Shown: positions 41,350 through 61,111 of the stretch, piece after piece | How positions within the stretch are numbered: position 1 is the stretch's first letter | How the letters are laid out: every line of letters begins with the position of its first letter | Assembly: GCA_034180415.1 (NCBI GenBank) | Contig: JAXFOK010000059.1 | Coordinates: 31,772-95,771, forward strand | DNA from: Bdellovibrionota bacterium | Lineage (GTDB): Bacteria; Bdellovibrionota_C; UBA2361; CAKMMH01 | Reading direction: 5' to 3' | DNA: 64,000 bases | Translations under genes and position numbers: made by a program | The notes under the pieces: generated by a model | Told to the model about the DNA's origin: nothing | What the model saw: only the letters and a program-made list of their open reading frames with translations | Databases searched by the model: none

Positions 41350-41368
41350 AAAAATTATTAAAAAAAAA

Positions 41369-41398
41369 GGCCACAACAAATTACATTGTGGTCTTTTT
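41369..41398 (+). terminator. Rho-independent terminator after rodA
   Basis: The hairpin is GGCCACAA-caaattaca-TTGTGGTC followed by TTTTT. Confidence 0.7.
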
Positions 41399-41974: not shown

Positions 41975-42694
41975 CTAAATCGTACTTACACTATGAGCAC
42001 TTACCCTATAAGAATGGTCACCTTGAGAGTCAGACATTGGATTAGAATGAGAATTGTAAACATTATTATATAAAACTGTTCCATATGGATTTTGTTCGTT
42101 TTTTAAATATATAGACTTTTGATTATATTTCCTTGCAATTTCTTCTAACTCTAAAAGATCATTATTATCAACACAAGTAGTTTGATACGAAATTTCGGCA
42201 TTGCCTTCATAATAACCTACATTTAATTTTATTCTATCTTTTTCAAATCCTATCTTTTCTAACTCCTTAAAAAAAATAGTAATCAATTTAGCATATGACT
42301 CATCAGTATATTCATTAAAAGGATCTTCATTTCCATTTTGATGAAATGTTATACAAGCAAAATCATCTTCAATTTCAACAGGCCCATATAATGAAGTTGC
42401 TAAACCATTTTTATCAAAAATTAAACTATATATTCCATCCTAAAGGCATGTGTCAGTATCATTGAAATTTTTAAAATTTTTAGCAAAATTTTTAACAATA
42501 TTTAATACACCTTTATATAGTGATACCTCTTGCATAAGTAAGTTAGAAAAGTTATCAGCATATTTATTTAATTCTTTTGGACCATTTAAAACTCTAATCG
42601 TGGAAATACATACATCATCGATTAAACTAATTTCATATCCTAATCCCTTAGTTAAGTCATTATCAGCATTTACAGTGTAACATTTACAGTGCAA
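41975..42694 (-). pseudogene. Disrupted gene of unknown function (single in-frame TAG plus probable 5' frameshift)
   Basis: Track ORFs 42440-42694 and 41975-42286 are in the same frame. They are separated by TAG (42440-42442) and then 51 open codons with no ATG/GTG/TTG. The only upstream ATG (42717) is out of frame. Confidence 0.5.
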
Positions 42695-42954
42695 CTTATA
42701 TTCTTACTATTAACCATATAGTGATTATGTGTCATACACACAACCTTTTACGTATTAAATATCAAAGAAAAACCTATTATTGTCTAACCTTTCATATTAG
42801 TATTTCTGCTTCATATTTTCAGAATAAAAATTGGATATTTATCATATAAATTCTGATAAATAACTAATTGTAAAAAATTATAAATATATTAATATTCATC
42901 ATAAATTCTTTAAATCTTGACTTATCAAATGAAACAAATTAGATTATTTTACAT

Positions 42955-43038
42955 GCCTGGATGGTGGAATTGGTAGACACGTTGGATTCAAAATCCAATG
43001 CTAGTAATAGCATGAGGGTTCGACCCCCTCTCTAGGCA
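42955..43038 (+). tRNA. tRNA-Leu (anticodon CAA), type II with long variable arm
   Basis: The acceptor stem is GCCTGGA/TCTAGGC. The anticodon stem-loop is TTGGA-TTCAAAA-TCCAA. The variable arm is TGCTAGTAATAGCA and the T arm is GAGGG-TTCGACC-CCCTC. The discriminator is A and CCA is not encoded. Confidence 0.95.
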
Positions 43039-43204
43039 ATTTAATATTCCAATTTTTCAATATTATATCAGTTGATTTAATATAAATTAAAGAATTTCCC
43101 TACTTTGAAGTGCAGCGTACATATTTATTTCAAAAAATGGTTGATTAATTCTCAATTCTTTAAATTTTTACGTGATACTTCATCTATATGTTCAGCAATT
43201 GAGT

Positions 43205-43786: not shown

Positions 43787-45991
43787 ATGAGTTATATAAA
43801 TAGAAATATATTTAATAATTTTAATAAATTAGTTAATTTTCCCATATTAAACGGTTTCATTATTGGTATCTTAAGTCTCTTATTATTAAATCCAAACTTC
43901 GAAATCATAAATATCACTTTAAATTTTAAATTGTTAACTATTATTTCAGCGTTTTTAATTTTACTTCTTACATACGGACTTATTAAATCTAAGGGAAAGT
44001 TTTCAAGTATTGGTATTGGTCTATCTTTAATAATTTTATTTTTTTCAAACACATTAAATAATACCTATTCTCTACTTCACGGACCAATAATTAAAGGTGA
44101 AATCTTACTATTTTTTCTAATATTTTTTGTCTTACTTATTAACAATAAACAAAAGTATATTTATAAAATTTTATTACTATCTCCTATTATTCTTGCTGCG
44201 ATTTTCTTATTTGAATCAAAACAAAATTTGGTTTGGTCAGATGATAACCCAACATTTTCATATAGGCTTGAAGCATTAAAAAGATTTTTTCCAAATATCC
44301 CATTTTACTTTACAGGTTGGAACTCAGGACTTGATGCAAGAGATTTTTTTGCAACAGGTGCGCTAAATATTTTCTTTTTAGCCTATCCTATTATTAAAAT
44401 TTTAAATATAACTAAACACTACAATATTATTTTAATATACCTTCTTTTTATTTTACTTCCCCTTTTTAACATATTAGCAGCAAAAATTCTTAAAAAAGAC
44501 TTTAAATTTATTGCAATAGTTTCTGTATTAAGCGTAACAAACTCACTTTTTTGGTATCGTTGGGCCTTAAAATACGGGACACTTGGATTTATAACGAGCA
44601 CAAGTTTGGCTCCTTTAGTATTTGTACTAGCAAGTAAACTTTTAAGTAAAAATGAAAATTTATCTAAAAATGAAGCAATACTTTTGGTAGTCACCACTTC
44701 ACTTCTTCTTCTTTGGAGTGCCGCAGGACTTATTTTTATCCCTTGTATTCTATTAGGTATTATATTTTTAAATAGGCTGCTTAAGAAAAAATATGTTTGT
44801 AAAATAATTTTAAGCCTAATGCTTATAAATATTCCTTGGATTATTATTTTCTTTTCAGCATCAAATGTAGGAAATTTTATAAAAGCTGAAAAAAGCACTG
44901 AATTAGTAAACATAGAAACAAAAATCAATTCTCATAACAATCAATTAACAAATAACTTAAAAATTGAAGGAGAAAAGACTTTTAAAACAAAAGCTACAAG
45001 TATTACCTTATCTAAATCTTTAAAAATCTTAAGAGAAACTCTAATAGGTGTAAATCCAATAATATATTTGTTTGTTCTAACTGGAATCTTTTTATTACCC
45101 AATACTTATAAAAACACATTTATATTAACATTTATTTGGCTTTTATTTTTAGGAACTGCTTATAGTCAAGTCAAGCCTCAAATGGAATTAGATAGAATGC
45201 TAATAGTATTAAGTATTCTAAGTATTATTCCTTGTGCTTTTAGCTTAGAAGAGCTTACAAAGCTTAGCTTTAATAAGTATACATGTTTATTAAATGCTTT
45301 AATACTATCCTTTATTTTTACAGGGATATTATCAACTGGAAGTATATTAAAAAATCGCACAGTTGAAGTTTATTACAGACAAAATGATAGTATAAAAAAT
45401 CTAATAAACTTTCTTAAAAATTATGAAAGTAAAGGAAGGATACTATTTTCAGGATTCGTTCTCCACGATTTTGGAGGTGGTCATATAGCACCTCTTCCCT
45501 TTATGACAGGAAAACAACTTATAGCTTCTAGTCCTTTTCATAATGTATGGAAATACACAGAGGTCATACCTAAAGAATTCTTAAGAGAAGACTATAAAAT
45601 TGAAAACTACTTAAAACTTCAAAATGTTGAATTAGTAATCGCACATGAAAAATACTGGAGAGATTACTTTTTAAATAATATTAATTTTGAAGAAATTTAT
45701 AAATTTAATAACTATAAAATATTTAAATATAAAAATTTTTCAGATTCGTATATTTTAACAGGTAAAATTAAGAATATTGAAATTTTGGATAATAAAATTA
45801 ACCTTACCCCATTATCAAAGGATATAGTCTTAAAATTTAATTACTTCCCTTTTTTGAAAACAAATAATTGTAAGATTTCTAATGAAAGCGTTTCTGAATC
45901 AATTAATTTTATTAAACTTTCTGATTGCGATATTGGTAAAGCAACAACTATTAAAGCTAAAAATGCATTTTTAAGAGTATTTAAAAAATGA
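43787..45991 (+). CDS. Large polytopic membrane protein with C-terminal soluble domain (GT-C-like glycosyltransferase?)
   Basis: It has 12 or more hydrophobic helices in ~520 aa, then a ~200-aa soluble region. The function is a guess from architecture only. Confidence 0.5.
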   Translation: MSYINRNIFNNFNKLVNFPILNGFIIGILSLLLLNPNFEIINITLNFKLLTIISAFLILLLTYGLIKSKGKFSSIGIGLSLIILFFSNTLNNTYSLLHGPIIKGEILLFFLIFFVLLINNKQKYIYKILLLSPIILAAIFLFESKQNLVWSDDNPTFSYRLEALKRFFPNIPFYFTGWNSGLDARDFFATGALNIFFLAYPIIKILNITKHYNIILIYLLFILLPLFNILAAKILKKDFKFIAIVSVLSVTNSLFWYRWALKYGTLGFITSTSLAPLVFVLASKLLSKNENLSKNEAILLVVTTSLLLLWSAAGLIFIPCILLGIIFLNRLLKKKYVCKIILSLMLINIPWIIIFFSASNVGNFIKAEKSTELVNIETKINSHNNQLTNNLKIEGEKTFKTKATSITLSKSLKILRETLIGVNPIIYLFVLTGIFLLPNTYKNTFILTFIWLLFLGTAYSQVKPQMELDRMLIVLSILSIIPCAFSLEELTKLSFNKYTCLLNALILSFIFTGILSTGSILKNRTVEVYYRQNDSIKNLINFLKNYESKGRILFSGFVLHDFGGGHIAPLPFMTGKQLIASSPFHNVWKYTEVIPKEFLREDYKIENYLKLQNVELVIAHEKYWRDYFLNNINFEEIYKFNNYKIFKYKNFSDSYILTGKIKNIEILDNKINLTPLSKDIVLKFNYFPFLKTNNCKISNESVSESINFIKLSDCDIGKATTIKAKNAFLRVFKK

Positions 45992-47784
45992 AAAATATCA
46001 CTTTACTAAAATTTCTTAAATTTATTTTTTTAATAATCTTTGTTGGGTTATGTATTATTACATTCAAGACTAATTTATCTGATAGCTCTTTAGAATTTCT
46101 TTCTAAATTAAATTTAATTAACGATAATTCATTCACTAATTTAATTGATTATTCTTCAAATTCATATTACAAATGGAAATTTAATACCTACATATTTGGA
46201 ATATCTAAATATTTATCCTCCTCATTTTCTTTGAATTTTAATACTGTCATTTATTATGTATGCTTAATATTCTTCTTTATTTTTAATACATACTTAACTA
46301 AGTGTATTAATCAAAAAATTTCAACATTAGCAGCAAGTATTATATCATTAAATTTCTTAATATTATTAATATTACTTTTTGGAAACAAAACATATGTAAT
46401 ATCAAGTATCACATTCTTACCTTTTTTTCTTTTTTCACTAATAAATGTAAATAAAGAAAACAAAAATACATTATTAAGTACTTTAGTATATCTTTTATCT
46501 CTTGTTTTTTTAATAAAATCATCAAATCATTTTTCTTTTTTATTCATAATCTTTTCTTTTGTAATTATTTCATTTTTAAAACCTGAAAAAGTAAAATTTT
46601 CAAAGTTACATATAATTCTTTTAATAATTGCTATTACCTCATCGTTATTTTATATAACATTTAAGATTCCATATATTGATTCTTTTGATTACCCTTGGTA
46701 CGCAAGAGTGGCGCAAGATGATGGACTTCCAGGTGTTATTAGGCCACTACTAAATGAAAGTGCATTAATTTCATATGTTGATGAAATTTCAGAAAAACAT
46801 CTTTATTTACCGGTAGTATCATTTATTTCTATATACATTTTATTTATTATTATGCACTCATTTAGCTCAGAAAATTTGAAAAATAAATACTTATCATATT
46901 TTCTTTTATTTTTTATTATATCATTTCTGTGTGAATTCTATTTATCACCTAGTTTATCTTTAATTTTATTTTTTAAAACTATATGGAGAACGATACCTAG
47001 TATTTTGTCATTTTCATTCTATCCGATATTTTTATTTTTAATGTTATTTTCATTCTATATCTTTATTACACAAAATATTAAAAATTTTATATTTTTATTC
47101 ATTCTAAATGTTGTACTTGGAATCAATGTGATCTCATCAAATTATAAACCAGTTTTAATAAAAGATGATGCAATAAAATTTATGAAGATCACTATTAAGA
47201 ATAATTACTTAAATTCGCAGCATAAAAACATAATTTTATCTCCTAGCGCATCTGTTATAAAATTATACGGATATAATTACTTAATTAATAAGGATAATTA
47301 TTTAAATAAAAATATTTATAGGAATATAAAAGTATTAAGCCCAACTCTTACATCTAATTATGGTGAAAATTCTCTAAATCAAATTTTAAATAAAAATAAC
47401 AATAAACGATATACTACATTACTTGGTAAACAAATCGGGAAAGAATGGATCAAGATTTCTACAAAAGAAAAAAATAATATTTTAGGAATAATGCTTGATG
47501 TCGGAAATTTTAAAACTGATTTTCCAACATCAATTTTAGTAAAAACTTGCGATGATGATAAGGAAAACTCAATTAAAGAAATTAATAACCTTGGAAATAT
47601 CGAATTTACTCCGAGTAATCTGCCATACTTTGGTGGACAAAATATTATAACAATCTTATTTGATGAGATGATAAATACAAGCTGTATTAAAATTCTTCAA
47701 ACTGGAATAAATGACAATTTTGAATGGTCAATTTCACAAATTAAATTTATACTTCCTGAAAAAGCTAGAAAAAATAAGGCATGA
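45988..47784 (+). CDS. Large polytopic membrane protein with C-terminal discoidin-like domain
   Basis: Its start overlaps the upstream stop (ATGA at 45988-45991). About 10 or more TM helices are followed by a C-terminal ~140 aa ending ILQTGINDNFEWSISQIKFILPE, which looks F5/8 type C-like. Confidence 0.5.
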   Translation: MKNITLLKFLKFIFLIIFVGLCIITFKTNLSDSSLEFLSKLNLINDNSFTNLIDYSSNSYYKWKFNTYIFGISKYLSSSFSLNFNTVIYYVCLIFFFIFNTYLTKCINQKISTLAASIISLNFLILLILLFGNKTYVISSITFLPFFLFSLINVNKENKNTLLSTLVYLLSLVFLIKSSNHFSFLFIIFSFVIISFLKPEKVKFSKLHIILLIIAITSSLFYITFKIPYIDSFDYPWYARVAQDDGLPGVIRPLLNESALISYVDEISEKHLYLPVVSFISIYILFIIMHSFSSENLKNKYLSYFLLFFIISFLCEFYLSPSLSLILFFKTIWRTIPSILSFSFYPIFLFLMLFSFYIFITQNIKNFIFLFILNVVLGINVISSNYKPVLIKDDAIKFMKITIKNNYLNSQHKNIILSPSASVIKLYGYNYLINKDNYLNKNIYRNIKVLSPTLTSNYGENSLNQILNKNNNKRYTTLLGKQIGKEWIKISTKEKNNILGIMLDVGNFKTDFPTSILVKTCDDDKENSIKEINNLGNIEFTPSNLPYFGGQNIITILFDEMINTSCIKILQTGINDNFEWSISQIKFILPEKARKNKA

Positions 47785-47911
47785 TTACTAAAAAGTGCTC
47801 ATAATTCCCTTGTTAAATTATTTTTAACGTAACTAGTTTTTATACTATGCATTTTCATGATAGACATTTTAATTTTAAATAGAAATTTACTAGAATAACT
47901 TTTTTAACCTA

Positions 47912-50125
47912 TTATTTTTTAGGTCTCTTAAAAGATGACACAGCACCTCTAATTCTAATCTTAGGACTTGACGATAATTTAAATTTTGTAGGTTCTTTGA
48001 CTTCCTTTACTTTTACTACATTTTCATTATTAATTTCTTGATTTTCTTCTTCTATAATTTTTTTATTTTCATTATCTTCATTTTCAGCGCTTTTATTATT
48101 ATCTTTAATTTGTAATCTACTAGAAACACTATCTTTAACTTTTATTCCACCAAAAATTTTATTTTTAAAATTCATACTAGAAAGATTAATTGACCTAGCA
48201 GAAACATTTTCTTCTGTTTTTGGCTTTGGTTTTGATTGCTTAGAATTCTTAGAACTTGAATATTGTGGTTTATCTGTTGATGGTTTTCGTGGTGAATCCT
48301 CATCATCTTCTAAATCTGCTTGTTCAATAGAATAGATTTTTGCATCAACCCATTCAGCAAGCCCGATTTCATCATTTTCAATTTTTTCAAATTGGTTAAT
48401 ATACTCTCTACCTTCCCAAGTTGGAGGAAGATCAGCATTAAACCAAAAAGAACGTCCTTTAACGATTTCACCATTTCCTAAATCAAAATATGCTAAACCT
48501 TTTTCAGCAGACATTTCATGCTTTAATTCCTCTGGGCTTACTAAATCTTTCTCAGCTTCACTTATACTAATATTTTGAGATTCACCACCTGTTTCTTTCA
48601 TTCCAAAAGCGCTACTTGCAACACTAGATGAAACACCACTACCTATCGATCTTTTAACTGCATTAATTTTTCCTATCCACTCTGCCATATCAGCTGCAGT
48701 TTGGTTATCACCTAGTCTCATCATAACTTTTAAGTTTACATTTGCCATCACACGCTCATAGAAAGATTGACTAAGTCCTAATGCTCCATCCATCAAACCA
48801 CCTGTAGATTGAGCCCCGAATAAAAGTGAAAAACGTCCTTTTCTTGCAAGCTCAAAAAGATTTGCCCAAGTAGGACCAAATGTTGACGATCCTTCATCAA
48901 TAATTACAAGATGTGGATCTTCAAGGTTGTGCTGTCTAGATGATGTGATTTCACCAATTGAAACCTCTAAGTCTTCTCTAAATAGTTTTACCATTCTTGC
49001 AGCACTTTCTGCGTCCTCAAGACGAGGAAGCATAAAGTAAATTAATTTTCCTCTTAAAATTGCATCTGTTAAATTTAAATCAGTGTAATTTGTACAGAAG
49101 ATTCCACCCATTGATGAGCTGCTTATCGCATGAAGCTCAGAAGAAATACCTCTTAAATTATCTGTAATTTTTGAAGTATCAAGAATCCCCTTTTTATCTC
49201 TATAACTTGCCGCCAAATGTCCAAGCTCTACTACTGCTTGTTTTGCACCAATTTTTTCAAGCATATTTTTTAAATGTGGATATGCTAAATTAAAAGCCGA
49301 AAGTGCCATCGCTACATCTTTTATAGACCAAGCAAGACCAAAACTCTCAAGCGCTCGTATCATTCTATTTATTGAGTCAGATGCTAATCTATCATAGTGT
49401 TTTGTTGCACTTTGATCAGATGTCGGAGGAAGTCCTGCACGAAGTACCTTTCTTGCTTTAACATCTGCTCTTTGATTTGTAAGAACAAAATTATATGAAT
49501 GAATAGTATCAAATGGATCTACAACAATTAAATCTTCAATTCGCCCAGTAATCAGTGCCATAAGAATAATATCAGCAAGTACACCCGAATCTCTTTTTGC
49601 GTCAATAAATGTAAATCCACTAGCTCTTCCTCTTGCCATTTGTTGAAGCATTAAAGACTCAAGCCATAATGTTTTACCAACGCCTGTTTTTGCGAACACA
49701 CATCCATGGCTACACATATCATTATCACTAAGCCACAACGGTTCACCCGAGTCTAAACTAAAACCTACTAAATACTTGTCAATAATTTTCTTGCCTTTAG
49801 CCCTTGCATCATTAAGTGCAATTTTAAAACAATCTCTCTGTGGCGGCATCCCTAGAACTGCCCTACCACCTCTTAATTCCATTTCATTTCTTCTGTCCTG
49901 TTCAATCATGTAGTCTTTTGCAAGCGATGAAACTATTAAACAATAAAAATATGTTGGAATCGCAGCGCCGAAAATAAATAATACAATTGCTGAAGCATCT
50001 GTCCATATAGGTAATATGACAAAAATAACCATTACAATAGTGGCAATCGTAGCTCTTCTTGTTAAGAGCTCTCTTTCTTGCTCTCGTCGTTCTTCATATG
50101 TTATTTTTTCATACTGTCTTGCCAT
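47912..50125 (-). CDS. Type IV coupling protein (VirD4/TraD/DotL family ATPase)
   Basis: It has two N-terminal TM helices and Walker A FAKTGVGKT preceded by GEPLWLSDNDMCSHG. A Walker B-like HLVIIDEG and LLFGAQS follow. The ~150-aa tail is K/E/S-rich. Confidence 0.85.
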   Translation of the reverse strand: MARQYEKITYEERREQERELLTRRATIATIVMVIFVILPIWTDASAIVLFIFGAAIPTYFYCLIVSSLAKDYMIEQDRRNEMELRGGRAVLGMPPQRDCFKIALNDARAKGKKIIDKYLVGFSLDSGEPLWLSDNDMCSHGCVFAKTGVGKTLWLESLMLQQMARGRASGFTFIDAKRDSGVLADIILMALITGRIEDLIVVDPFDTIHSYNFVLTNQRADVKARKVLRAGLPPTSDQSATKHYDRLASDSINRMIRALESFGLAWSIKDVAMALSAFNLAYPHLKNMLEKIGAKQAVVELGHLAASYRDKKGILDTSKITDNLRGISSELHAISSSSMGGIFCTNYTDLNLTDAILRGKLIYFMLPRLEDAESAARMVKLFREDLEVSIGEITSSRQHNLEDPHLVIIDEGSSTFGPTWANLFELARKGRFSLLFGAQSTGGLMDGALGLSQSFYERVMANVNLKVMMRLGDNQTAADMAEWIGKINAVKRSIGSGVSSSVASSAFGMKETGGESQNISISEAEKDLVSPEELKHEMSAEKGLAYFDLGNGEIVKGRSFWFNADLPPTWEGREYINQFEKIENDEIGLAEWVDAKIYSIEQADLEDDEDSPRKPSTDKPQYSSSKNSKQSKPKPKTEENVSARSINLSSMNFKNKIFGGIKVKDSVSSRLQIKDNNKSAENEDNENKKIIEEENQEINNENVVKVKEVKEPTKFKLSSSPKIRIRGAVSSFKRPKK

Positions 50126-50149
50126 TGATTAAAACTCCAACCTATACTT

Positions 50150-52018
50150 TTATTTATCTCCTTCTTCTAATTTCATTGCAGTAGCCTTTGTGATTTTAAC
50201 CTTCTTGACTTTTTCTATAGATTCACTCCATCTTTCACCTAGATAATCAACAAGTTTAGAAGTCCTAAATAATACTAAACCACTTACATCTTTTATTTCA
50301 TTTTCTTCAGTTAGAAATTTACAATCGATTACCGCGCTATAAGGAACATATCTATCGGATACTCTTTTACCTAACCAACTAAATGCATTTAAACATGAAC
50401 GTAAATTTTGCCAAATTATAACATCATCTAGCTTCGGTAAATATTTTGAAATTTCATCTTTTGTATTTTGAGAAAACTCTTTTAAAAATGAATTATTATC
50501 ATCTGATAGCTTTTTCTGCTCTATTTGTGAAACTAAATTATCAGCCTCTCTTTTGTTATAAACTCTCTTAATAAGATCTGAAAGTTCAAACAAATCATTT
50601 TTTATAGAATCACTTAAAAGAGAATATATGACTTCCAATTTTGCAAATAATTGCCCACCTTCTGTGACAAAAAAGTTTCCTTGCAAGTCATCAGAATTTT
50701 CAATATATTGCACAAATAATCTTGTCCAAGCTTTATGAATTTCCGTTGATTTTGCAAAAAATTGCAATTCATCAATTATAGAGTCTGCATTGTTAAAATG
50801 TAATATTAATTCAAGCCATTGCCTTAATGTATAAGACTGTGTATTCATCTTTAGTGGCATTCTAATTTCTAAGAAATCACTCTTTCTTTCCGCAAAAACT
50901 AAAGCCTTACGTATCATCTCTCTTTCATCAAAATCATATTCATCTCCATAATAAGGAGATGAATGTAAGATTGCACGAGCGCAAAGATGTGGATAATTAG
51001 ATTGCATTGTCCATCTATCATTTGAAATATGTTCATAAGCTAATATTCTACCAGTTTCTAGAGCCATAATAGCAGTAGCAATATTTTTAGGTACTATATT
51101 TTTAAGTTCCTTTTTCATATTTTTAGTTAAACACAGTACCATATTTTCTTTTCGTTTATCATTTTTTGTATCGATATCATTTTCACTAGTAATTTCTTGC
51201 TGAATTTCAAAAGCATTTATAAGAAACTCGTATGTATCTTCAAATAAGTTTCCCGAGCCGATTCCATCGTTAATAAAAGTTGGATAATTGTAATAGTGTA
51301 AAATTATAGATGCTAAATACTTATTTGTTTCATTTTCAGCACCATATTTCTCTAATAAAGTACAAAACGCAGATTTTTTATAAATTTCCTCATTTACTTG
51401 AGATAAACATGTTAGTCCAGTTATATGAAGAGTAGGATTTCCATTTTTATCGCATTTTTTTATACCAGCTCTTACACCTGAAAAGAACATTCTACCGTTT
51501 CCAGCAATTCCTAAAATATCTCTTGCTTTATATGGTTTTACTTTCTTAATTGATTTAATAAAAGCATAAATTACAGCTATTAACCAAACTTTCCATGATG
51601 CTAGTATCACAAACACTAATTGCATAATAGAATTTGAAAATATTACAAATAAAGATATAAGAACATTTGACGAAGGAAACGCTTCACAAACAGAAATAAA
51701 CAATTTAAAAACAAATAACGAAACTAATAAAAAGAAAGTACACTCCCCACTTGTACCAAATGCTGAAAGAAAATCGTGGTATTTATAATAAGTATTTACA
51801 ACAGAAATATTATTATCAATGCTAATAATTTTTTCAGTGTAGCTTACAATCTTTTCATTAACAAAAACATTATTAGAAAAGAGAGGTAATAATTGAATTA
51901 AAGCAATAAGAATAACAAATACAACCCAGGCTATCTGTGAGTAGTTCTTAGCTTTTTCCTCATTCATTAGTGAGGCTAAATCTTTTGTGTCTGCATCATA
52001 TTTAATATTCTTAACCAT
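50150..52018 (-). CDS. 4-TM membrane protein with ~460-aa cytoplasmic helical domain, co-transcribed upstream of the T4CP
   Basis: Four hydrophobic helices lie within residues ~29-155. I see no recognisable catalytic motif. The stop is 25 nt before the T4CP start. Confidence 0.6.
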   Translation of the reverse strand: MVKNIKYDADTKDLASLMNEEKAKNYSQIAWVVFVILIALIQLLPLFSNNVFVNEKIVSYTEKIISIDNNISVVNTYYKYHDFLSAFGTSGECTFFLLVSLFVFKLFISVCEAFPSSNVLISLFVIFSNSIMQLVFVILASWKVWLIAVIYAFIKSIKKVKPYKARDILGIAGNGRMFFSGVRAGIKKCDKNGNPTLHITGLTCLSQVNEEIYKKSAFCTLLEKYGAENETNKYLASIILHYYNYPTFINDGIGSGNLFEDTYEFLINAFEIQQEITSENDIDTKNDKRKENMVLCLTKNMKKELKNIVPKNIATAIMALETGRILAYEHISNDRWTMQSNYPHLCARAILHSSPYYGDEYDFDEREMIRKALVFAERKSDFLEIRMPLKMNTQSYTLRQWLELILHFNNADSIIDELQFFAKSTEIHKAWTRLFVQYIENSDDLQGNFFVTEGGQLFAKLEVIYSLLSDSIKNDLFELSDLIKRVYNKREADNLVSQIEQKKLSDDNNSFLKEFSQNTKDEISKYLPKLDDVIIWQNLRSCLNAFSWLGKRVSDRYVPYSAVIDCKFLTEENEIKDVSGLVLFRTSKLVDYLGERWSESIEKVKKVKITKATAMKLEEGDK

Positions 52019-52129
52019 AAAAAAACTTAAAAACTAAATAAATTTTAAAATTAAATTAATATGATTGTTACTTATGTGGAGCATATAGCGCTTCGGTATA
52101 AAATGGTAATCAAAATTATAAAATATTAA

Positions 52130-52152
52130 ATTGCTTAGAATTTTCAAGCAAT
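52130..52152. promoter_or_regulatory. Inverted repeat in the divergent T4SS control region
   Basis: The repeat is ATTGCTT-agaattttc-AAGCAAT, inside the 558-bp spacer between the two T4SS operons. Confidence 0.25.
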
Positions 52153-52576
52153 TCTCCTTATAGTTATGACCAATACCTACGTATATATCACATAAATTTA
52201 TCACAAATTACTATCTTTTATCAAAAATAATTTCAAAATCTTGTATACTGTATCGGATTTTTATAAAATAAAATAAATAGTAAAGCATGTCCTAAAGTTT
52301 ATTTTTTTAATGTTTTGAAGCTAAAAATTTACTTAATAATTTCAACAGGTTACCAAGACTGCTAATTCGTATAAATATAATTACTATTTAATTTAATATA
52401 TTAGAATAAATTTGTAAAAAAATTGAAGCAAAAATGTACGTTATCATGATATGCAATCGGTAGAATTTTAACTAAATTTTATCAAGGTTTTTTATTAAAG
52501 GACCGAAGTTACACTATGAGTTGATTTATGATATGATACATAGCCAACTTAAAATGCAAGAAGGAGATATATATAT

Positions 52577-52927
52577 ATGAAACTAACTAAGGTATTTTAC
52601 TTACTAGTTATTTGTATTCTTTTATTTTCAATAACCGCATCAGCACAAGACACGCCATTTATCGAGCAAGCAACTGATGCACAAGTTAAAAAAGCTCAAG
52701 GACATTACGCGAGAGCACGTTCCCTACTAATAGCAGCAATAAATGAATTTGACAGAGCAACTAGTGTTGCTAACCCTGAGTCTTTGTTAGATGTTAGCAG
52801 ATTTAGAACTACTTTAATTGATAGGGCTGAAGAGCTAGAAAGAATTTTAGACCCTCAGCCTAGAACATCAAAAGAAGGAGTACGTTTTTCCCCTGATACT
52901 AGATTATTAGGTGAGGCAGTTAATTAA
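52577..52927 (+). CDS. Small secreted helical protein, possibly RAQPRD-family-like (ICE-associated)
   Basis: AGGAG RBS. The signal peptide is LLFSITASA/QD. A C-proximal ILDPQPRTSKEG recalls the RAQPRD motif. It is the first gene of the Tra-like operon. Confidence 0.45.
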   Translation: MKLTKVFYLLVICILLFSITASAQDTPFIEQATDAQVKKAQGHYARARSLLIAAINEFDRATSVANPESLLDVSRFRTTLIDRAEELERILDPQPRTSKEGVRFSPDTRLLGEAVN

Positions 52928-52953
52928 TTGTATTTTATTTTTTAGGAGTTTTA

Positions 52954-53367
52954 ATGGATAATGGTGACGTTATTCCTAATTTAGATGCCCCTTGGGATTT
53001 CTTATCAACAAGAATACAAGAGTGGATCATTGGAGCAATAGTCGGTTTAATTGTAAATGAATTATTTTTTACAAGTGCCGCTAGTTCTATGCCATTTATC
53101 TTCATTACGATTGTGCTAACAGCATATGGATTAAGTTGTGCAAGAAGAAAGTTTGCTGATGGTTCACGTGGTTTTGTAAATTACTGCTGCGTGAAAATGG
53201 GAATCATACCTCCAGGAATTCCAGCTCCTAGTGAGCTACAACCTGTTTGGAGCGGTGCACCTATGAGAAGAATAAAAAGTGATACATTATACATGCAACT
53301 TGGCTTTGATGAATTCTTTTTGGAAAGAAAAGAGGAAAAATTAAAACAACAAGAAGGAAGGTTATAA
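52954..53367 (+). CDS. TraL-like (VirB3-analogous) small inner-membrane protein
   Basis: AGGAG RBS. The N-terminal IPNLDAPWDFLSTRIQEW is followed by two TM helices and a Pro-rich GIIPPGIPAPSELQPVW. It sits immediately before the TraE-like gene. Confidence 0.5.
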   Translation: MDNGDVIPNLDAPWDFLSTRIQEWIIGAIVGLIVNELFFTSAASSMPFIFITIVLTAYGLSCARRKFADGSRGFVNYCCVKMGIIPPGIPAPSELQPVWSGAPMRRIKSDTLYMQLGFDEFFLERKEEKLKQQEGRL

Positions 53368-54027
53368 ATGGTTAACTTAAGAGAAACTGGAAAAAACGTT
53401 TTAAATAACACAAATATTAATGAATATAAACGTGGTGATGATACCATAAGAATATGGGAAGGCTACAGACAACAGGCCGTCATGTGGCGTGCGCTGTCAA
53501 TTATGCAATTACTAGCTACTACTGCAGTTTCAATTCTGTGTATTATTTTATGGCAGACAAGACAAGTCGTTTTAAATGTTCCTCAACGCCCAGTTCCTGG
53601 ACAATATAACACTCAAGAAATACCAGATGCCGATTTAATAGAAGCAGCAACTACATTTGTAAATTTAATTGCTACATTTCAACCTTATACAGCTAAAGCA
53701 CAATTTGAACGTGCTGGCGCATATGTACATGATGAATATTACCAAAAATTTACTGATGAGACTTTAGGAAGTGAACTTAAAGCTATTATACAGACTTCTC
53801 TTTCTCAAGTGTTTTATATAGATCCATCAAAAACAACGGTTGAGAGAAATAAAAACAACACTGTAATAGTTCATCTATACGGTGTTAGGCATAAATATAT
53901 TAGTGGTGAAGAAAGAGAACCAGTTAAATCTATGTATGAAGTTTTCCTAACGACTCTTCCAAGAAATGAGTTAAACCCATTGGGGATTGTCGTATATGAT
54001 AGTAACTTACAGATTATAGAAAATTAA
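53368..54027 (+). CDS. TraE/VirB8-like bitopic protein
   Basis: It is translationally coupled (TAAATG). It has a single TM helix (LLATTAVSILCIILW) and a ~150-aa periplasmic domain. That domain has the pattern PDADLIEAATTFVNLIATF...SLSQVFY, which parallels F TraE. Confidence 0.6.
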   Translation: MVNLRETGKNVLNNTNINEYKRGDDTIRIWEGYRQQAVMWRALSIMQLLATTAVSILCIILWQTRQVVLNVPQRPVPGQYNTQEIPDADLIEAATTFVNLIATFQPYTAKAQFERAGAYVHDEYYQKFTDETLGSELKAIIQTSLSQVFYIDPSKTTVERNKNNTVIVHLYGVRHKYISGEEREPVKSMYEVFLTTLPRNELNPLGIVVYDSNLQIIEN

Positions 54028-54048
54028 ATTAATTAAAGAGAATTAACT

Positions 54049-54864
54049 ATGAAAAAAATGACTATGAAAAGAAACATAAAATTATTTAAAACATCATTTA
54101 TTGCATTATGTGCTATCTTATTGATAACAAATTTTGCCTTTGCTAGAGATGTTGAATATAAAGGAACAGAGCTTGATGTCTTTGTATCACCTGGTGAACC
54201 AACGCAAGTACAATTTCCTTCAAAAGTATTAGGTGGATTTAAAAAGAAACTTTCTGCAATATCACTTGATAAAAAAGGATATGATTTAGTTATTTTTGCA
54301 ACTGAACAGCTAACAGAAACTGGCGAATCAATGATTATACGTCTTGATGATGGACGCTCTTATACATTAAGAGTAAAAAAAGCAAATGCAACAAATAAAG
54401 ACACTCTTGTAAGAATTATTGATAAGAGTCAATCAATTTTGACAAGCTCTGGAGCAGAGATTGATGAAAGCGATAATGTAAAAGATCCTCAATTAACTTT
54501 TGCACCTCCTACACAAGTTTCAGGATTAATGAGAGAAATGATTTTAGCGTCTGAATTTGGAAAAGGTGCAATTAACGGATATCGTGCAACAGATAAATAT
54601 AGAGGTGAGACTGTAATAAACGATGGCGCGATTCATGCAACAATTGATACGATTTTCATAGGGACTAATCTTTGGGGCTATGTGCTAGATGTTAAAAATC
54701 TTCTAGATGTATCTCAAAAGCTTAATCCTGCGACCTTTAGACTTGATGGCACACGGGCAATTTCTTTTGAAAAATGGGAATTATCCCCTCAACCATTAAA
54801 TATTGAAGAGCAAATAGCTAAAGGACATAAAACTAAGGTTTATATTGTAACTAGGGCTAGATAA
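54049..54864 (+). CDS. TraK/VirB9-like outer-membrane-complex protein
   Basis: It has a signal peptide. The C-terminal GTNLWGYVLDVKNL...GTRAISFEKW...KVYIVTRA resembles the TraK C-terminus. Confidence 0.6.
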   Translation: MKKMTMKRNIKLFKTSFIALCAILLITNFAFARDVEYKGTELDVFVSPGEPTQVQFPSKVLGGFKKKLSAISLDKKGYDLVIFATEQLTETGESMIIRLDDGRSYTLRVKKANATNKDTLVRIIDKSQSILTSSGAEIDESDNVKDPQLTFAPPTQVSGLMREMILASEFGKGAINGYRATDKYRGETVINDGAIHATIDTIFIGTNLWGYVLDVKNLLDVSQKLNPATFRLDGTRAISFEKWELSPQPLNIEEQIAKGHKTKVYIVTRAR

Positions 54865-54910
54865 AAGATACTAAAAAGGAAAAAGTTTTTAATTTAAAGG
54901 GTAAGAAAAA

Positions 54911-56104
54911 ATGGCTCGAAAGACAGATGATATAAAAATGATGGTAACGAAAGACAGAAAAACACAAATGACCATAATAGGTGTAGGTGTTTTTCTGGTT
55001 ATAGGCCTTATGGTGTTTCTTACGAGTGCAGATAAATATAAGACTAAGCGTATGACCACAACACGTACATCTACAAAAACTGTGACACCAAAAGATGAAC
55101 ATTTAGATGATTTTGTAAAAAGCTTTAAATCAGATTTAACACAACTTCAAAAAGATCAAGTAGAAGCACAAAAAGAAATGAAAGAATTAGGAAACAGATT
55201 AGATGTATACGAAAGAAGAACCTCAGATATCTTCAAAAAAATCTTAGAAAAAATTGCGGATATTGAAGTTGGAAGTGGCGGTAATGGTTACGATGTAAAT
55301 AACACTTCTGTCGTATCTGATGATTTAATGTTGGAAGATCAAGATAATGTTGATAATAACGGCGAGGGAGAAGGACAAGATCAGTTAGAATCATTCTTTG
55401 ATGAAAAAGAAAATGTTAAGCCTGTTCAAAAAGAAATTAAAAAGAAAGTCGCATTTGTAGCTCCAGGAGACACCGTAAGGGTAAAACTTCTAGGAGGTGT
55501 TAACGCGCCAACAGATGGTACTCCATATCCTGTGATTTTCAAATTAATTTCTCACGTAGCAGGTCCTGACAACTCTCAACTTCCTCTTGGCGAAGCAAGA
55601 CTTATTGCCGCCGCTCAAGGTTCAATTGTAGATCAAAGAGCTTTATTTAGATTAACTAAATTAAGTATAAGATTACCAAATGGTGAAAGAAAGGTAGTTT
55701 CAGTAGATGGTTGGATCGTCGGTGAGGATGGTATTAGAGGATTAAAAGGCATTCTTATTGACCCTATCGGTAAAGCAATTACAGGAGGTTTAATGATAGG
55801 AGGTCTGGCTGGAGCTGGTGAAGCAATCTCTGATGCTAATTCAACCGTTCTTCACAATTACGATAGCGATCAAAGAATTATTACTGGAGATACCGGAAGA
55901 TACGCTTTAGGTGAAGGCTTAAGTAAAGGCTCTGAGGTATGGTCAGAAGTATTAAGAGATAGATTAAAAGAAATGGTTCCTGTAGTTCAAATTCTTTCAG
56001 GTAGAGAAGCTACTGCTACTTTTGCAAATGAAGTAACAATAGAAGATTTATATGAACAATTAGAAGATGAAAACGGTTATGACCAATTTAATGGTATGGA
56101 TTAA
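54911..56104 (+). CDS. TraB/VirB10-like protein
   Basis: It has a TM helix (IIGVGVFLVIGLMVFL), a coiled coil and an acidic linker. The C-terminal VKLLGGVNAPTDG...LGEARLIAAAQG...VDGWIVGEDGIRGLKG is typical of F-type TraB. Confidence 0.7.
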   Translation: MARKTDDIKMMVTKDRKTQMTIIGVGVFLVIGLMVFLTSADKYKTKRMTTTRTSTKTVTPKDEHLDDFVKSFKSDLTQLQKDQVEAQKEMKELGNRLDVYERRTSDIFKKILEKIADIEVGSGGNGYDVNNTSVVSDDLMLEDQDNVDNNGEGEGQDQLESFFDEKENVKPVQKEIKKKVAFVAPGDTVRVKLLGGVNAPTDGTPYPVIFKLISHVAGPDNSQLPLGEARLIAAAQGSIVDQRALFRLTKLSIRLPNGERKVVSVDGWIVGEDGIRGLKGILIDPIGKAITGGLMIGGLAGAGEAISDANSTVLHNYDSDQRIITGDTGRYALGEGLSKGSEVWSEVLRDRLKEMVPVVQILSGREATATFANEVTIEDLYEQLEDENGYDQFNGMD

Positions 56105-56128
56105 TTTTTATTAGGAGTTTACTTTATA

Positions 56129-56584
56129 ATGAAAACAATTATTAAGAAATTTTTATTAATTACTTTTTTAAGCATGTGTCTTAGTGGTTGCTATGCACTT
56201 CAAAATATTTTTAATCCATTTTACGAACCGCCAACAGAACATGCGCTAAAAGGTGAACTTAACGACCGCGCTATTCAAGAAGGCACTACAAGTCTAGGTA
56301 GTAGTGCAAGAGATGCTCTTGAAAATATTGCTTCATACCAAAGAGCTCATTTACCTCAACCAAACAACCCAGTAATGCAACCAGCCGTTGTAAGACTTAT
56401 GTGGATTCCAGATCATTTAAACAATAGTGGTGATTTAATTCCTGCACACTATTATTACCTAAAAGTATTAAATGAAAGATGGGCAGTAACTGACGCTTTT
56501 GATTTAGAAAAACAATTAGGTAGTGGAAGTAAAGATACGTCTAGTATCCCTTATGTAAGTCAAACGCAAAAAAATAGGTTCTAA
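56129..56584 (+). CDS. TraV-like lipoprotein
   Basis: It has the lipobox LSGC. The C-terminal VRLMWIPDHLNNSGDLIPAHYYYLKVLNERW parallels the TraV W-x-P...G...W tail. Confidence 0.5.
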   Translation: MKTIIKKFLLITFLSMCLSGCYALQNIFNPFYEPPTEHALKGELNDRAIQEGTTSLGSSARDALENIASYQRAHLPQPNNPVMQPAVVRLMWIPDHLNNSGDLIPAHYYYLKVLNERWAVTDAFDLEKQLGSGSKDTSSIPYVSQTQKNRF

Positions 56585-56587
56585 ATT

Positions 56588-57049
56588 ATGAAAAATTTTA
56601 ATATGAAACTTTTTATATTAATTATTGTTATGTTATCAATGTCAGGGTGCCACTATAAATATACTGGCACAAATAGTACCCTTGATAGACGTGTTCATAT
56701 TTTTGCTGTTAGGCAATCACCTCTTCCACCTACATATAATAGAATACGAACTGTACACTTAGCTGAGCCTCTTCCAAGTAGAGATAACCATCCTGTTTCA
56801 AATAGAATTATTACTCCTGTTTTTCAATTTGAAGCAGAAAATTCTACATTTGATGAAGTTGCTCTAATTTTAGCAAATACTGCAAAATATTCTGCTCATT
56901 GTGATCCAGATATTGCAAATAAAAAAGTTTCAATTATAACTCTAGGTACTATCGATGAGATAGCAAAAGAGATTGAAAATGAAACAGGTATTACAGTTAA
57001 CATAGATCATAAAAATAAAGAGGTTAGATTTTTAGGTAGTAAAAAATAA
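56588..57049 (+). CDS. Lipoprotein with secretin-N0/TcpQ-PilL/DotD-like C-terminal domain
   Basis: It has the lipobox MSGC. The C-terminal FEAENSTFDEVALILANTAKY...VSIITLGTIDEIAKEIENETGITVNID has a beta-alpha-beta N0-like pattern. Confidence 0.4.
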   Translation: MKNFNMKLFILIIVMLSMSGCHYKYTGTNSTLDRRVHIFAVRQSPLPPTYNRIRTVHLAEPLPSRDNHPVSNRIITPVFQFEAENSTFDEVALILANTAKYSAHCDPDIANKKVSIITLGTIDEIAKEIENETGITVNIDHKNKEVRFLGSKK

Positions 57050-57109
57050 TGCTGTTAGCAATTAATTTTATAATTATGTAGGTTAAACGAGATTAGGAGA
57101 ATTTATATT

Positions 57110-59815
57110 ATGAGTATATCAAGACTCCAAAAAGAAAGGTTATTTCATGACGAAGAGCTATTTAATGAGTTGTTGTCATATGCAGAGTATGACGAAGATT
57201 ATAGAATTTTCTTTCATACAGATACTTCATTCTGGGCAATTTTCAGATTACAACCTTTAGGAATAACAAAAGTTTCAGATAATGACGCTTTTCAAACTGC
57301 TGAAGCAATTCAAGAACTTTTTGATACATTCGATACAAATATAGCTGTTCAAGTTAACTGGATTACAAGTTTTGAAATCGAAAGTTTACTAAAAGAAAAT
57401 TTAAACGCTTACCCTCTTTCAGGACCTGCTGGTTGGATGGCAAGAAGGTGGATTAGATCAATAAGAAATGCCGCAAATAGTAGCGAGTTTGGATTACGTC
57501 CTAAGAAATTAGATTTACTTTTTTGCTTTAGGTATGACCCAAAATGGAAAAGTAGAGATATGGTAGGTCAAATCATTGAAGGATTTAAATCTGTCTTTTC
57601 ATTTTCAAACAATATGACAGCAGATAGAAGAAGACAAGAGTATTATGAAAATGCAAATAAATTTAAAGGTATTCTAGAAGGTACTTCAGCAAAACTTGCT
57701 GATATGGGATTTCATCCTTATCAATTTGATGCTCAAGATTTAATTGATTTAATGTTCCCTCTTTTAAATAGAAGAAGTATTAAAGGTGGGAAATATAAAC
57801 GTGGAAGAAATACTAACGTTGCAGTCCCTGTATATGACCCACAAGAAATTTTAACAAATCAAATTTCAGAAACAAAAGTTGATCATCCGGAAAACGGTAT
57901 TATTAAAAAAGATGGCAGAGTTTACAGGACTGTTTCAATGGTTGAAACTCCTAAACAATGTTTACCATTAATGATTGCACCTCTTCAATGTGCATCATAT
58001 GAAAATATTTTAAGTGTCACTTATTCAAAAGATTCTCAACAAGAACAAATTAAAAAGCTTGACCAAAAAGATGCTATGTTAGGTTTTCGTGAAGTTACCG
58101 CAAGAGGTCGTGCGAACCAAAAAGCACTTCATCGAATTTCAGCAATAAGAGCAGCAAGAGCAGAGCTTTATGCTTCAAGATGTCAAATCGTAAGAGTCGG
58201 TGTACATCAAACTTTTATTTGCCAAAATGAAGATGAGGCAAAGCGTGCAACGTCAGAAGCAATCGCTACTATTTCTCAGATTAACGGCGCTCGTGGTATG
58301 GTTCATGAAATCTCCGATTTAGCAACTTTCGTTCATTCATTACCAGCGATGTATGACCCTGAAATGGACGGTGAAGGTTGGACTGTTACACTCCGTTCGT
58401 CAAGAGCATCAAGGTTATACCCTATTTATGGTAACTGGAGAGGAACAAGGGGGAAACAATTTTTACTTCCATCTCTTTGGAATAGAGAGTTAGTAGGATT
58501 TGATTTATATGATTCAAACATTGCTCCAAACGTTTTAATAAGTGGTGTATCAGGTGCCGGTAAAAGTTACCTACTTTGCTATATGCTTATAACCTTAGCT
58601 CGTGGTCACTTTGCATCTTTACCAAATGGACAAAGTGTTGAGAAACCCCCTATTACGTTCGTTTTTGATAAAGGTATGACAGGTCAACCTTGTGGATTTG
58701 AAAAAGTTGCAAAACTTTTTGGAGGAAGAATATACGAAGCAACTCCTTCAAAAGCGCCGGCTATGAACTTCCTTGCTCGTCTTGGACGTACTGCTCCTGA
58801 CCCTAGAAACGAAGACTATAAAGATTTAATAGATATGTGCGCAGATATTATTTGCGATATGGCTGTTGAAGGTTCAAAACAACCAGGACGACTTGAAAAA
58901 AATGTCGTAGTTGCATCTCTTGTCGAAGCTCATAGGCTTTATAGAAATGGTCCAATGAGAAGAGAATTTATTTTAAGTGATGCAGTTGCTGTGTTAAGAG
59001 CGCCAAGAAGAGTTGATGAAGATGAAGATACTGCCAAAAGGCGTCAACTTGTTGCCATGCTTATTGGTGATTACTATGGTGACGGAACTTACGCTAGATT
59101 CTTTGATAGACCTGGTGCTTTAAAACTTCAAGAAAGATTTATTGTATTTGACTTAAAAGCATTAAGTAGAAACCCAGACTTACAAAGAGTATTCTTAAAA
59201 GTTGCAATGCTTTGGGCTGACACTGTGATGAATGACCCAATGGAGTTAGACTGTAGGAAAATATTAGTATTTGATGAAGCACATGACTTAATTGGAAAGA
59301 CTGCATCAGGAACTGTAGAAACTGCATTTAGATTATATCGTAAAAGAAAAGGTATCGTAATTGCAGCTTCTCAATCTGGTGAAGATTTCTATTTAGGAGA
59401 AGGTGGGCAAGCAATCGTTCAAAACTCAGCTCATAAGATCTTTTTAAAACAAGATCCTAGCAAGTTTCATATGACAGCAAAAGCTTTTAATTTATCACCT
59501 CAACAAGCTGATGTTATTTTAAGACTTAGAACTATTAAGGGACTAGAGTCGCAATTTTATTTAATATCTGATATTGGAGAATCAGCTTTAGTACTTCCAC
59601 TTGAACCAGCTTTTTATTGGGTAAGTACCAATAATGGTGATGATAACCAATTATTTGCAGATGTATTAAAGCAAAACAACGATGACTTCTTAAAAGCACT
59701 AGAGCAAGTTGTCGCAATTGCACCAAATGGAGCACATGCATTTAAAATGCAGATGGATACAAATAAAAAGAATGAAATAAACATGAACAGTTTTTTTAAT
59801 GATATGGAGAAATAA
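57110..59815 (+). CDS. VirB4-family T4SS ATPase (TraC-like)
   Basis: It is 901 aa with an AGGAG RBS. It has Walker A ISGVSGAGKSY, Walker B ILVFDEAHDL and AASQS. Confidence 0.85.
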   Translation: MSISRLQKERLFHDEELFNELLSYAEYDEDYRIFFHTDTSFWAIFRLQPLGITKVSDNDAFQTAEAIQELFDTFDTNIAVQVNWITSFEIESLLKENLNAYPLSGPAGWMARRWIRSIRNAANSSEFGLRPKKLDLLFCFRYDPKWKSRDMVGQIIEGFKSVFSFSNNMTADRRRQEYYENANKFKGILEGTSAKLADMGFHPYQFDAQDLIDLMFPLLNRRSIKGGKYKRGRNTNVAVPVYDPQEILTNQISETKVDHPENGIIKKDGRVYRTVSMVETPKQCLPLMIAPLQCASYENILSVTYSKDSQQEQIKKLDQKDAMLGFREVTARGRANQKALHRISAIRAARAELYASRCQIVRVGVHQTFICQNEDEAKRATSEAIATISQINGARGMVHEISDLATFVHSLPAMYDPEMDGEGWTVTLRSSRASRLYPIYGNWRGTRGKQFLLPSLWNRELVGFDLYDSNIAPNVLISGVSGAGKSYLLCYMLITLARGHFASLPNGQSVEKPPITFVFDKGMTGQPCGFEKVAKLFGGRIYEATPSKAPAMNFLARLGRTAPDPRNEDYKDLIDMCADIICDMAVEGSKQPGRLEKNVVVASLVEAHRLYRNGPMRREFILSDAVAVLRAPRRVDEDEDTAKRRQLVAMLIGDYYGDGTYARFFDRPGALKLQERFIVFDLKALSRNPDLQRVFLKVAMLWADTVMNDPMELDCRKILVFDEAHDLIGKTASGTVETAFRLYRKRKGIVIAASQSGEDFYLGEGGQAIVQNSAHKIFLKQDPSKFHMTAKAFNLSPQQADVILRLRTIKGLESQFYLISDIGESALVLPLEPAFYWVSTNNGDDNQLFADVLKQNNDDFLKALEQVVAIAPNGAHAFKMQMDTNKKNEINMNSFFNDMEK

Positions 59816-59818
59816 AAA

Positions 59819-60127: not shown

Positions 60128-60227
60128 ATACAGTGGAAAAAAATAAGCAATTTATAAAGTTTTACTTTTAAATTGTTTATTTTTTATTTATAGTTTTAAG
60201 AGTTTATTTAATTTAAGGTATTTTGAT

Positions 60228-60566: not shown

Positions 60567-60569
60567 TTT

Positions 60570-61100: not shown

Positions 61101-61111
61101 GTAAGGTTTTT

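Follow-up and report, generated by a model that had tools for sequence, protein, structure and literature searches.

We analysed a 64,000-nucleotide stretch of DNA from a Bdellovibrionota bacterium (contig JAXFOK010000059.1 of assembly GCA_034180415.1; the whole stretch is hereafter called the window), in which the gene for an unnamed 622-amino-acid (aa) membrane protein lies directly ahead of the gene for a type IV coupling protein (T4CP). Open reading frame (ORF) calling and translation placed the first gene in an ATG-to-TAA frame at 50150–52018 on the minus strand, and the T4CP gene follows at 47912–50125 on the same strand. An initial annotation of this DNA had proposed just such an arrangement, a 622-aa membrane protein encoded directly upstream of a co-oriented coupling protein, and both the ORF and the T4CP were verified. 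The adjacency stood as well, but the spacer between the stop codon of the first gene (50150–50152) and the ATG of the T4CP gene (50125–50123) measures 24 nucleotides (nt) rather than 25, and the strand, which the annotation had not given, is minus. The sequence GGAG lies about 11 nt ahead of the T4CP ATG. The two genes form one two-gene operon and are co-transcribed. Below, we refer to the 622-aa protein as the partner protein and to its homologues as the partner family.

We sampled this gene pair across genomes from both sides. Starting from the partner protein, 7/7 independent members had a T4CP gene directly downstream, and the gap between the two genes ranged from −11 to +77 nt across the loci of this set (the window, L001, L004, L007, L008, and L026–L028). 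With the T4CP as bait, we obtained 12 genome loci, and every one of the 11 that included upstream sequence carried a member of the partner family, immediately upstream and co-oriented. Altogether, the partner gene directly preceded the T4CP gene, with matching orientation, in 19 of 19 assessable loci. At most loci, an F-like mating-pair formation (MPF) operon was divergently adjacent, with the same gene order; at L008, L011, and L014–L018, this operon was displaced or not within the 10-kb flank, and the pair was intact. The flanking housekeeping genes varied between lineages. Because the flanks vary and the pair persists without an adjacent MPF operon, we regard the partner and T4CP genes as an invariant unit. 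The initial annotation had held that homologues usually found away from type IV secretion system (T4SS) genes would speak against a link with the T4CP; the pair was present in every assessable locus, and the suggestion of a dedicated T4CP partner was borne out from both sampling sides, also where the MPF operon was not adjacent. Since the gene sits directly ahead of a T4CP gene in every relative examined, a dedicated T4CP helper is the most likely identity of its product. Judging from sequence and from analogy, the protein is probably a membrane-anchored auxiliary subunit of the T4CP (“D4Aux”), which would be analogous to DotM while being undetectable as a relative of DotM or TrbA.

The coupling protein (737 aa, with a long low-complexity C-terminal tail) has the features by which a T4CP is recognised, namely a Walker A motif (AKTGVGKT), a Walker B motif (LVIIDE), two N-terminal hydrophobic helices, and a match to Pfam TraG-D_C. 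Its NCBIfam matches were TrbC_conju (the IncI DotL homologue) and SXT_TraD, both weak, and a search against PDB sequences returned a single match, Legionella DotL/IcmO (E value 1 × 10−14). These profile matches place it among T4CPs of the DotL/TrbC/SXT-TraD kind; systems with such T4CPs encode a membrane partner nearby, and we counted this in favor of an auxiliary subunit. A T4CP that is 58.6% identical to the one in the window, an identity that is unusually high across phyla, is encoded on the linear plasmid pLBX of Leptolyngbya boryana (L021, 13926–15995), beside a protelomerase gene.

To define the extent of the partner family, we performed two kinds of sequence search. A word-indexed search returned no more than 10 relatives, of which just one had a name, being annotated as a hypothetical protein in a Bdellovibrionota metagenome-assembled genome (MAG), and the same search with a 47-sequence alignment returned the identical 10 close relatives. 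We then ran a 9-sequence profile with HMMER exhaustively against 1.84 billion cluster representatives, which yielded 259 clusters at 50% identity (199 with E < 1 × 10−30), nearly all of them full length (600–820 aa). Homologues with 52–98% identity to the 622-aa protein share its N-terminal start; these matching starts, together with the 259 clusters, show that this is no chance ORF. The members sampled either lack a name or are called “hypothetical” and come from MAGs labelled Bdellovibrionales, Bdellovibrionota, Oligoflexia, “Deltaproteobacteria,” or Candidatus Dadabacteria. We performed tblastn with the window protein and one typical member against 72,556 plasmids and found zero matches; the nearest T4CPs on plasmids (27% identity) have different neighbour genes. 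Searches with the 622-aa protein and with the 9- and 47-sequence profiles against Pfam, NCBIfam, and PDB sequences returned nothing, in the PDB not even at E ≤ 10, and none of 47 diverse members consistently matched any Pfam or NCBIfam model. A confident match to an unrelated family such as a transporter, which the initial annotation had named as a finding that would overturn its reading, was thus absent from Pfam, NCBIfam, and PDB sequences. The family has no name in any library searched and appears unrelated to known T4CP partners in sequence and also, within the reach of the fold comparisons made, in structure.

Next, we characterized the topology of the partner protein (all segments given here are on the minus strand). 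Kyte-Doolittle peaks of the window protein fall at residues 29–47, 93–111, 120–138, and 134–152, and AlphaFold places helices at residues 90–113 and 118–159, the latter being one long helix. Across the family, the strongly hydrophobic segments number only two in 135/149 members; the first lies around residue 30, and the second directly precedes a conserved juxtamembrane motif. The four hydrophobic stretches quoted in the initial annotation are present in the protein, but four transmembrane (TM) helices did not hold up as a family trait: because 135/149 members carry two strong segments, the “4-TM” arrangement is a trait of this AT-rich clade. The first TM helix (residues 29–47, 51878–51934; hydropathy 2.78) is conserved and is the strongest hydrophobic block family-wide. 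The second hydrophobic block (residues 93–155, 51554–51742) comprises two to three helices in this clade according to hydropathy peaks and AlphaFold, and only its last ~25 residues correspond to the family-conserved TM helix. Between the two conserved segments lies a net-acidic loop of ~80–125 aa, and the density of lysine and arginine peaks in the N-terminal tail and after the last TM helix. By the positive-inside rule, this distribution points to a conserved topology with the N terminus inside, a periplasmic helical loop, and a cytoplasmic C-terminal domain. The predicted N-terminal anchor thus consists of two conserved TM helices flanking a periplasmic helical loop of ~80 aa, with extra hydrophobic helices in this clade. 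The predicted cytoplasmic domain (residues 206–610, 50189–51403), assigned from AlphaFold, conservation, and its lysine- and arginine-rich flank, is mostly helical and ends in a C-terminal beta-sheet.

We assessed how fast the partner protein evolves relative to its neighbors. Between the window and distant loci, identity was 59–68% for the T4CP (59–74% across lineages), 60–67% for TraC, ~50% for TraK, and 23–29% for the partner; in close relatives, it was 60–66% for the partner and 73–89% for the T4CP and TraC, placing the partner among the fastest-evolving genes. This asymmetry fits an adaptor, in which a conserved interface would be combined with a variable substrate side. Within the protein, conservation is concentrated in three places. 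The first is the juxtamembrane motif (residues 167–205, 51404–51520), among the most conserved segments of the family alignment, which reads D-x-L-G-x-x-G-N-G-R-x-F-(Y/F)-S-G ... G-L-(A/T)-C-P (D167 86%, L169 98%, G170 95%, S180 97%, G181 100%, L202 95%, and C204 89%). The second, residues 340–403, contains conserved S340, L345, and S353 as well as R348, R366, R370, R378, R399, and E403; the third, residues 536–597, contains W536, R540, W548, R552, R585, and W597. The arginines, tryptophans, and glutamate listed for the second and third places are near-invariant in the cytoplasmic domain. None of the 149 members shares an invariant His, Asp, or Tyr with all others; the nearest cases are H352 (72%), Y179 (73%, with Phe in 26%), and Y361 (77%). 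Conserved Arg, Trp, Gly, Ser, and Glu, and not catalytic His, Asp, or Tyr, therefore point to binding rather than enzymatic activity, and, for want of any invariant His, Asp, or Tyr, we rejected an active relaxase or nuclease. In keeping with this, the initial annotation had seen no recognizable P-loop, HD/3H, or nuclease motif, and we likewise found no Walker A or B motif and no HxH, while a lone HD (residue 81) is not conserved.

We then examined the predicted structure. An earlier AlphaFold model based on 9 sequences was too poor (pLDDT 69), and its fold matches, including PDE2 and Rel, were disregarded. The model based on the 47-sequence alignment (m42e730920e9c) had a mean pLDDT of 87.3 and a pTM of 0.75, with pLDDT of 90–98 over most of residues 210–610. 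In this model, the ~460-aa remainder of the protein is helix-rich, as the initial annotation had said, and also holds beta elements (three small beta-hairpins and the C-terminal beta-sheet). A Foldseek search with the full-length model, a check that the annotation had suggested, found no significant neighbor: none of the matches in PDB or BFVD reached E ≤ 0.001, the best having E values of 0.19 (PDB) and 0.03 (BFVD). HD folds dominated the weak matches. Among the best 50 of the 156 PDB matches with E ≤ 10, the set on which all statements about PDB fold matches are based, 16 belonged to the HD superfamily, including PDE4, PDE10, SAMHD1, SpoT, and CloA, and none of these was significant. The best compact matches were the HD nuclease YhaM of B. 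subtilis (9h3f_A; probability 0.99, E value 0.19, TM-score 0.52 over the target), a phage HDc-domain protein (BFVD; TM-score 0.45), and phage polyA-polymerase-like proteins. In the sequence, residues 340–353 (SNYPHLCARAILHS, 50960–51001; family consensus S-x-F-P-x-L-x-A-R-A-V-L-H-S) may correspond to a degenerate “HD” helix end: A-R-A-V-L-H-S (347–353) resembles the end of the helix bearing the HD dyad, with Ser in what we infer to be the Asp position (position 352 is His in 72% and Gln in 22% of members, and position 353 is Ser in 97%). The core is possibly an HD-like helical fold with a lost metal site, a suggestion that leans on the weak matches of the model.

Several known systems encode a membrane protein beside the coupling protein, and we compared the partner protein with each. 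In Legionella, DotM (IcmP; 380 aa) has three predicted TM helices and an all-helical cytoplasmic domain, binds Glu-rich effector tails via arginines, contacts the ATPase and the tail of DotL, and is encoded beside dotL (PMC5802825, PMC7280309). In the IncI plasmid R64, the gene order is trbA-trbB-trbC, and TrbA (402 aa) served as a positive control, matching DotM_C (PF23127) with an E value of 1.6 × 10−49. As in these systems, the partner gene precedes, in the same orientation, a gene for a T4CP of the DotL/TrbC type, and its product begins with a TM anchor, to which a largely helical cytoplasmic domain is joined, with arginines that are conserved here and functional in DotM. By this analogy, the role expected for the 622-aa protein would be that of DotM, a T4CP auxiliary subunit that docks substrates (PMC5802825, PMC7280309). 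It differs from them in its length (622 aa versus 380–402 aa), in the F-like rather than type IVB character of the MPF genes at its locus (TraE, TraK, TraB, TraV, and TraC), and in the confinement of its family to uncultured Bdellovibrionota-like lineages. A second comparison is with the TraJ/DUF4400 membrane proteins, inherited together with the TraG/TraD T4CPs of IncH, SXT/R391, and related elements, and with Yaa of GGI-like systems; both have a few TM helices, are encoded beside an SXT_TraD-like T4CP, and occur in F-like MPF systems (PMC6736028). In R27, a 220-aa DUF4400 (PF14348) protein is encoded two genes downstream of the T4CP (E value 1.8 × 10−12 as a positive control). Proteins of this kind are ~220 aa long, almost wholly membrane-embedded, and encoded downstream of the T4CP, whereas the 622-aa protein is encoded upstream and adds a 450-aa cytoplasmic domain. 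The statement in the initial annotation that known partners are considerably shorter was therefore correct for DotM (380 aa), R64 TrbA (402 aa), and the R27 DUF4400/TraJ-type protein (220 aa).

On this basis, a mechanism can be outlined for how such a subunit may work. In the membrane, the TM helices of the partner and the two of the T4CP would pack together. An interface with the conserved ATPase of the T4CP would be formed by the juxtamembrane motif and the Arg/Trp-rich core (residues 340–403 and 536–597), and the fast-evolving rest of the cytoplasmic domain would dock a lineage-specific substrate and pass it on to the channel of the T4CP, in the way that DotM serves DotL. A substrate-receptor function is plausible by analogy with DotM and given the fast evolution of the protein beside a slowly evolving T4CP. 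No relaxase was seen in any locus; therefore, the substrate may be a protein, or DNA that is handled unconventionally, and it is plausible that a receptor here would serve substrates of another kind than a classical relaxosome.

Several results weigh against an auxiliary subunit of this kind, the first being that no tie to the known partners was seen in sequence or fold. DotM_C was matched by 0 of the 47 diverse members at E ≤ 0.1. Comparison of the family with hhalign gave 0.7% for R64 TrbA and 0.15% for a 7-sequence TrbA alignment (29–100% identity), and the DotM structures (5X1U, 6EXA-E, and 6SZ9_B) were not in the best 50 of 156 PDB Foldseek matches. Homology to DotM/TrbA was thus rejected by Pfam, hhalign, the PDB profile search at E ≤ 10, and Foldseek. 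Homology to TraJ/DUF4400 fared no better, with 0/47 Pfam matches, an hhalign value of 0.1% against the single R27 DUF4400 sequence, and no hit to TIGR03747-type NCBIfam models; in naming DotM and TraJ as precedents, the initial annotation did not point to homologues. Homology to a 367-aa protein of R27 was likewise rejected by hhalign. The second kind of counter-evidence is genomic. At the pLBX locus, the sole case seen of this T4CP type without a partner, neither a partner-family gene nor MPF genes lie near the T4CP gene, and this T4CP type is therefore able to exist without a partner protein. Finally, synteny with a T4CP is equally expected for a DNA-processing protein or an assembly factor.

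The 5′ end of the pair is separated from the MPF operon by a 558-bp AT-rich divergent intergenic region (52019–52576), where promoter-like sites were no commoner than in shuffled sequence and no outstanding (oriT-like) inverted repeat was found, only AT-rich imperfect repeats. In one gut RNA-seq run, examined over window positions 47500–53500, short contigs with 97–99% identity matched stretches of the T4CP gene and the beginning of the MPF operon, possibly through DNA carry-over; nothing clear lay over the partner gene, and the run was uninformative for its expression. The F-like MPF operon (52577–62591, plus strand), identified by Pfam and NCBIfam matches, shares its gene order with L001, L004, L007, and L026–L028. 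It begins with genes for a secreted 116-aa protein, a 2-TM 137-aa protein, TraE, TraK, TraB, a TraV-like lipoprotein, and a 153-aa lipoprotein-like product, and continues with TraC/VirB4, proteins of 102 and 112 aa, a bPH_2 membrane protein, an SH3 protein, and an M23 peptidase, after which it adjoins a tRNA-synthetase gene. The 116-aa first product carries a signal peptide and differs from a typical TraL. By Pfam, NCBIfam, and hydropathy, the window cluster has no recognizable VirB6/TrbL/TraG_N, TraU, TraW, TraN, TraF, or TraH, and its MPF operon has no identifiable pilin. Neither a relaxase nor an integrase was seen by Pfam and NCBIfam annotation in the cluster of any locus inspected. The F-like operon is unusually minimal, and its order is the same in distant lineages.

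On the other side of the pair, two polytopic membrane proteins are encoded on the plus strand: one of 734 aa with ~11 hydrophobic segments (43787–45991), whose gene overlaps the next, and one of 598 aa with ~9 hydrophobic segments (45988–47784), whose gene is convergent with the T4CP gene. We considered both as missing T4SS parts and rejected them, as they have no Pfam or NCBIfam match and are kept only in the closest relatives, L001 and L009. Beyond them, the cluster adjoins rodA, a gene for a PBP2-type penicillin-binding protein, and a tRNA-Leu(CAA) gene (42954–43039), together spanning window positions 38304–43039. The rodA neighborhood is retained in L001 and L009, whose partner proteins are just 60–66% identical to that of the window, and the flanks differ in more distant lineages. 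Because this neighborhood is kept among diverged close relatives, the cluster looks vertically inherited within the clade and not like a recently mobile island. G+C content is ~25–36% throughout the window, and its sequence turns up again in many metagenomes of pig gut. In the distant lineages, nearly without exception, the T4CP gene is followed by a third conserved gene (L004, 14549–15064; L007, 14580–15104; L008, 14163–14615; L027, 14283–14762; L026, 17271–17759). It encodes a soluble protein of ~150–175 aa that is 50–77% identical between lineages and has no Pfam match; a homologue was seen neither in the 64-kb window nor in its closest relatives (L001, L009, and L010). This ~160-aa protein may be a further subunit of the coupling complex that was lost or moved in the clade of the window.

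The best-surviving alternative, which we nonetheless consider unlikely, is that the partner protein is a membrane-anchored, catalytically degenerate descendant of a DNA-processing HD-fold protein (MOBH, TraI_2 type), occupying the relaxase position and handling DNA, by binding or atypical cleavage, instead of proteins. Its appeal lies first in position. In R27, the MobH relaxase gene is immediately upstream of, and co-oriented with, the SXT-type TraD gene (TraI_2 match with an E value of 1.5 × 10−31 as a positive control), the same slot as that of the partner gene, in an operon that is here likewise divergent from an F-like MPF operon; the window T4CP, moreover, matches SXT_TraD, and the cluster shows nothing else that could be a relaxase. 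In GGI-like F-type systems, the genes for TraI, TraD, and Yaa, a small membrane protein, lie together, and the GGI TraI is membrane-associated (PMC6736028). TraI_2 is itself an HD fold, and the weak but recurrent HD-superfamily matches of the partner model, with YhaM and the phage HDc protein as the best compact ones, would agree with such an origin; the MOBH3 clade, which has neither HD nor 3H motifs and presumably serves another function, offers a precedent for motif loss (PMC6736028). Against this stand the sequence comparisons, which rejected homology to MOBH TraI (TraI_2 (PF07514) and TraI_2_C in 0/47 members; hhalign 0.66% against a MOBH alignment), and the structural ones, in which no match was significant and the TraI_2-type structures 3KQ5 and 2IPQ, of the MOBH3 clade, were absent from the best 50 of 156. 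The partner also has true TM helices rather than an amphipathic helix, has no conserved H...HD...D, HHH, or Tyr, and is not accompanied by an oriT-like inverted repeat in the divergent intergenic region. A bolder variant, to which we give slightly less credence still, joins this origin to the receptor role: the protein would be a TM-anchored pseudo-enzyme on an HD/TraI_2-like fold, its catalytic residues lost, that receives the substrates of a minimal F-like system, passed on vertically and devoid of relaxase and VirB6; with this system, uncultured Bdellovibrionota, gut species among them, would transfer proteins or DNA into other cells.

It is similarly improbable, in our estimate, that the protein has no part in substrate recognition and serves the T4CP in some other way, be it by regulating or gating the ATPase, by aiding assembly or stability, or through immunity or exclusion. 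Synteny alone does not define function, the conserved residues are tied to no known ligand, and the true adaptor could instead be the conserved ~160-aa protein that most lineages encode after the T4CP. However, a well-folded (by prediction) cytoplasmic domain of 450 aa, maintained across 259 clusters, is more than one would expect of a simple anchor; proteins for exclusion and immunity tend to be small and are seldom cytoplasmic; and fast evolution beside a slow T4CP is what would be expected of a specificity determinant.

Least probable of all is a substitute for the missing VirB6/TraG inner-membrane channel or platform, as the initial annotation had also suggested. In its favor, VirB6 is regarded as almost universal, and in “extended VirB6” proteins hydrophobic helices are joined to large hydrophilic domains (PMC12857230), as they are in the partner, which in this clade has 3–4 hydrophobic helices and is the only large membrane protein conserved with a system that lacks a recognizable VirB6/TrbL/TraG_N. 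Against it, VirB6 has 5 or more hydrophobic helices where 135/149 partner members have two, the bulk of the partner is predicted to be cytoplasmic, Pfam TrbL and TraG_N did not match, VirB6, TrwI, and DotA were not among the top Foldseek matches, and the gene remains with the T4CP, not with the MPF operon, where the two are separated.

Coupling proteins decide what type IV secretion systems export, and to our knowledge very little is known outside the Legionella Dot/Icm system about the auxiliary subunits that give T4CPs their specificity. A T4CP with a dedicated membrane partner is a known kind of component; the 622-aa family would be a third, unrelated solution after DotM/TrbA and TraJ/DUF4400. 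The family is large, confidently modelled, and linked to its T4CP as tightly as DotM is to DotL, and it marks an undescribed, compact, conserved secretion cluster of 14–15 genes that has no relaxase, VirB6/TraG, or TraU/W/N/F/H. If the HD-like core derives from a MOBH relaxase, the family would illustrate how DNA-transfer machinery comes to be repurposed. Bdellovibrionota is a phylum known for predatory lifestyles, and if the partner protein is a substrate receptor, it would provide a handle for finding what these bacteria inject.

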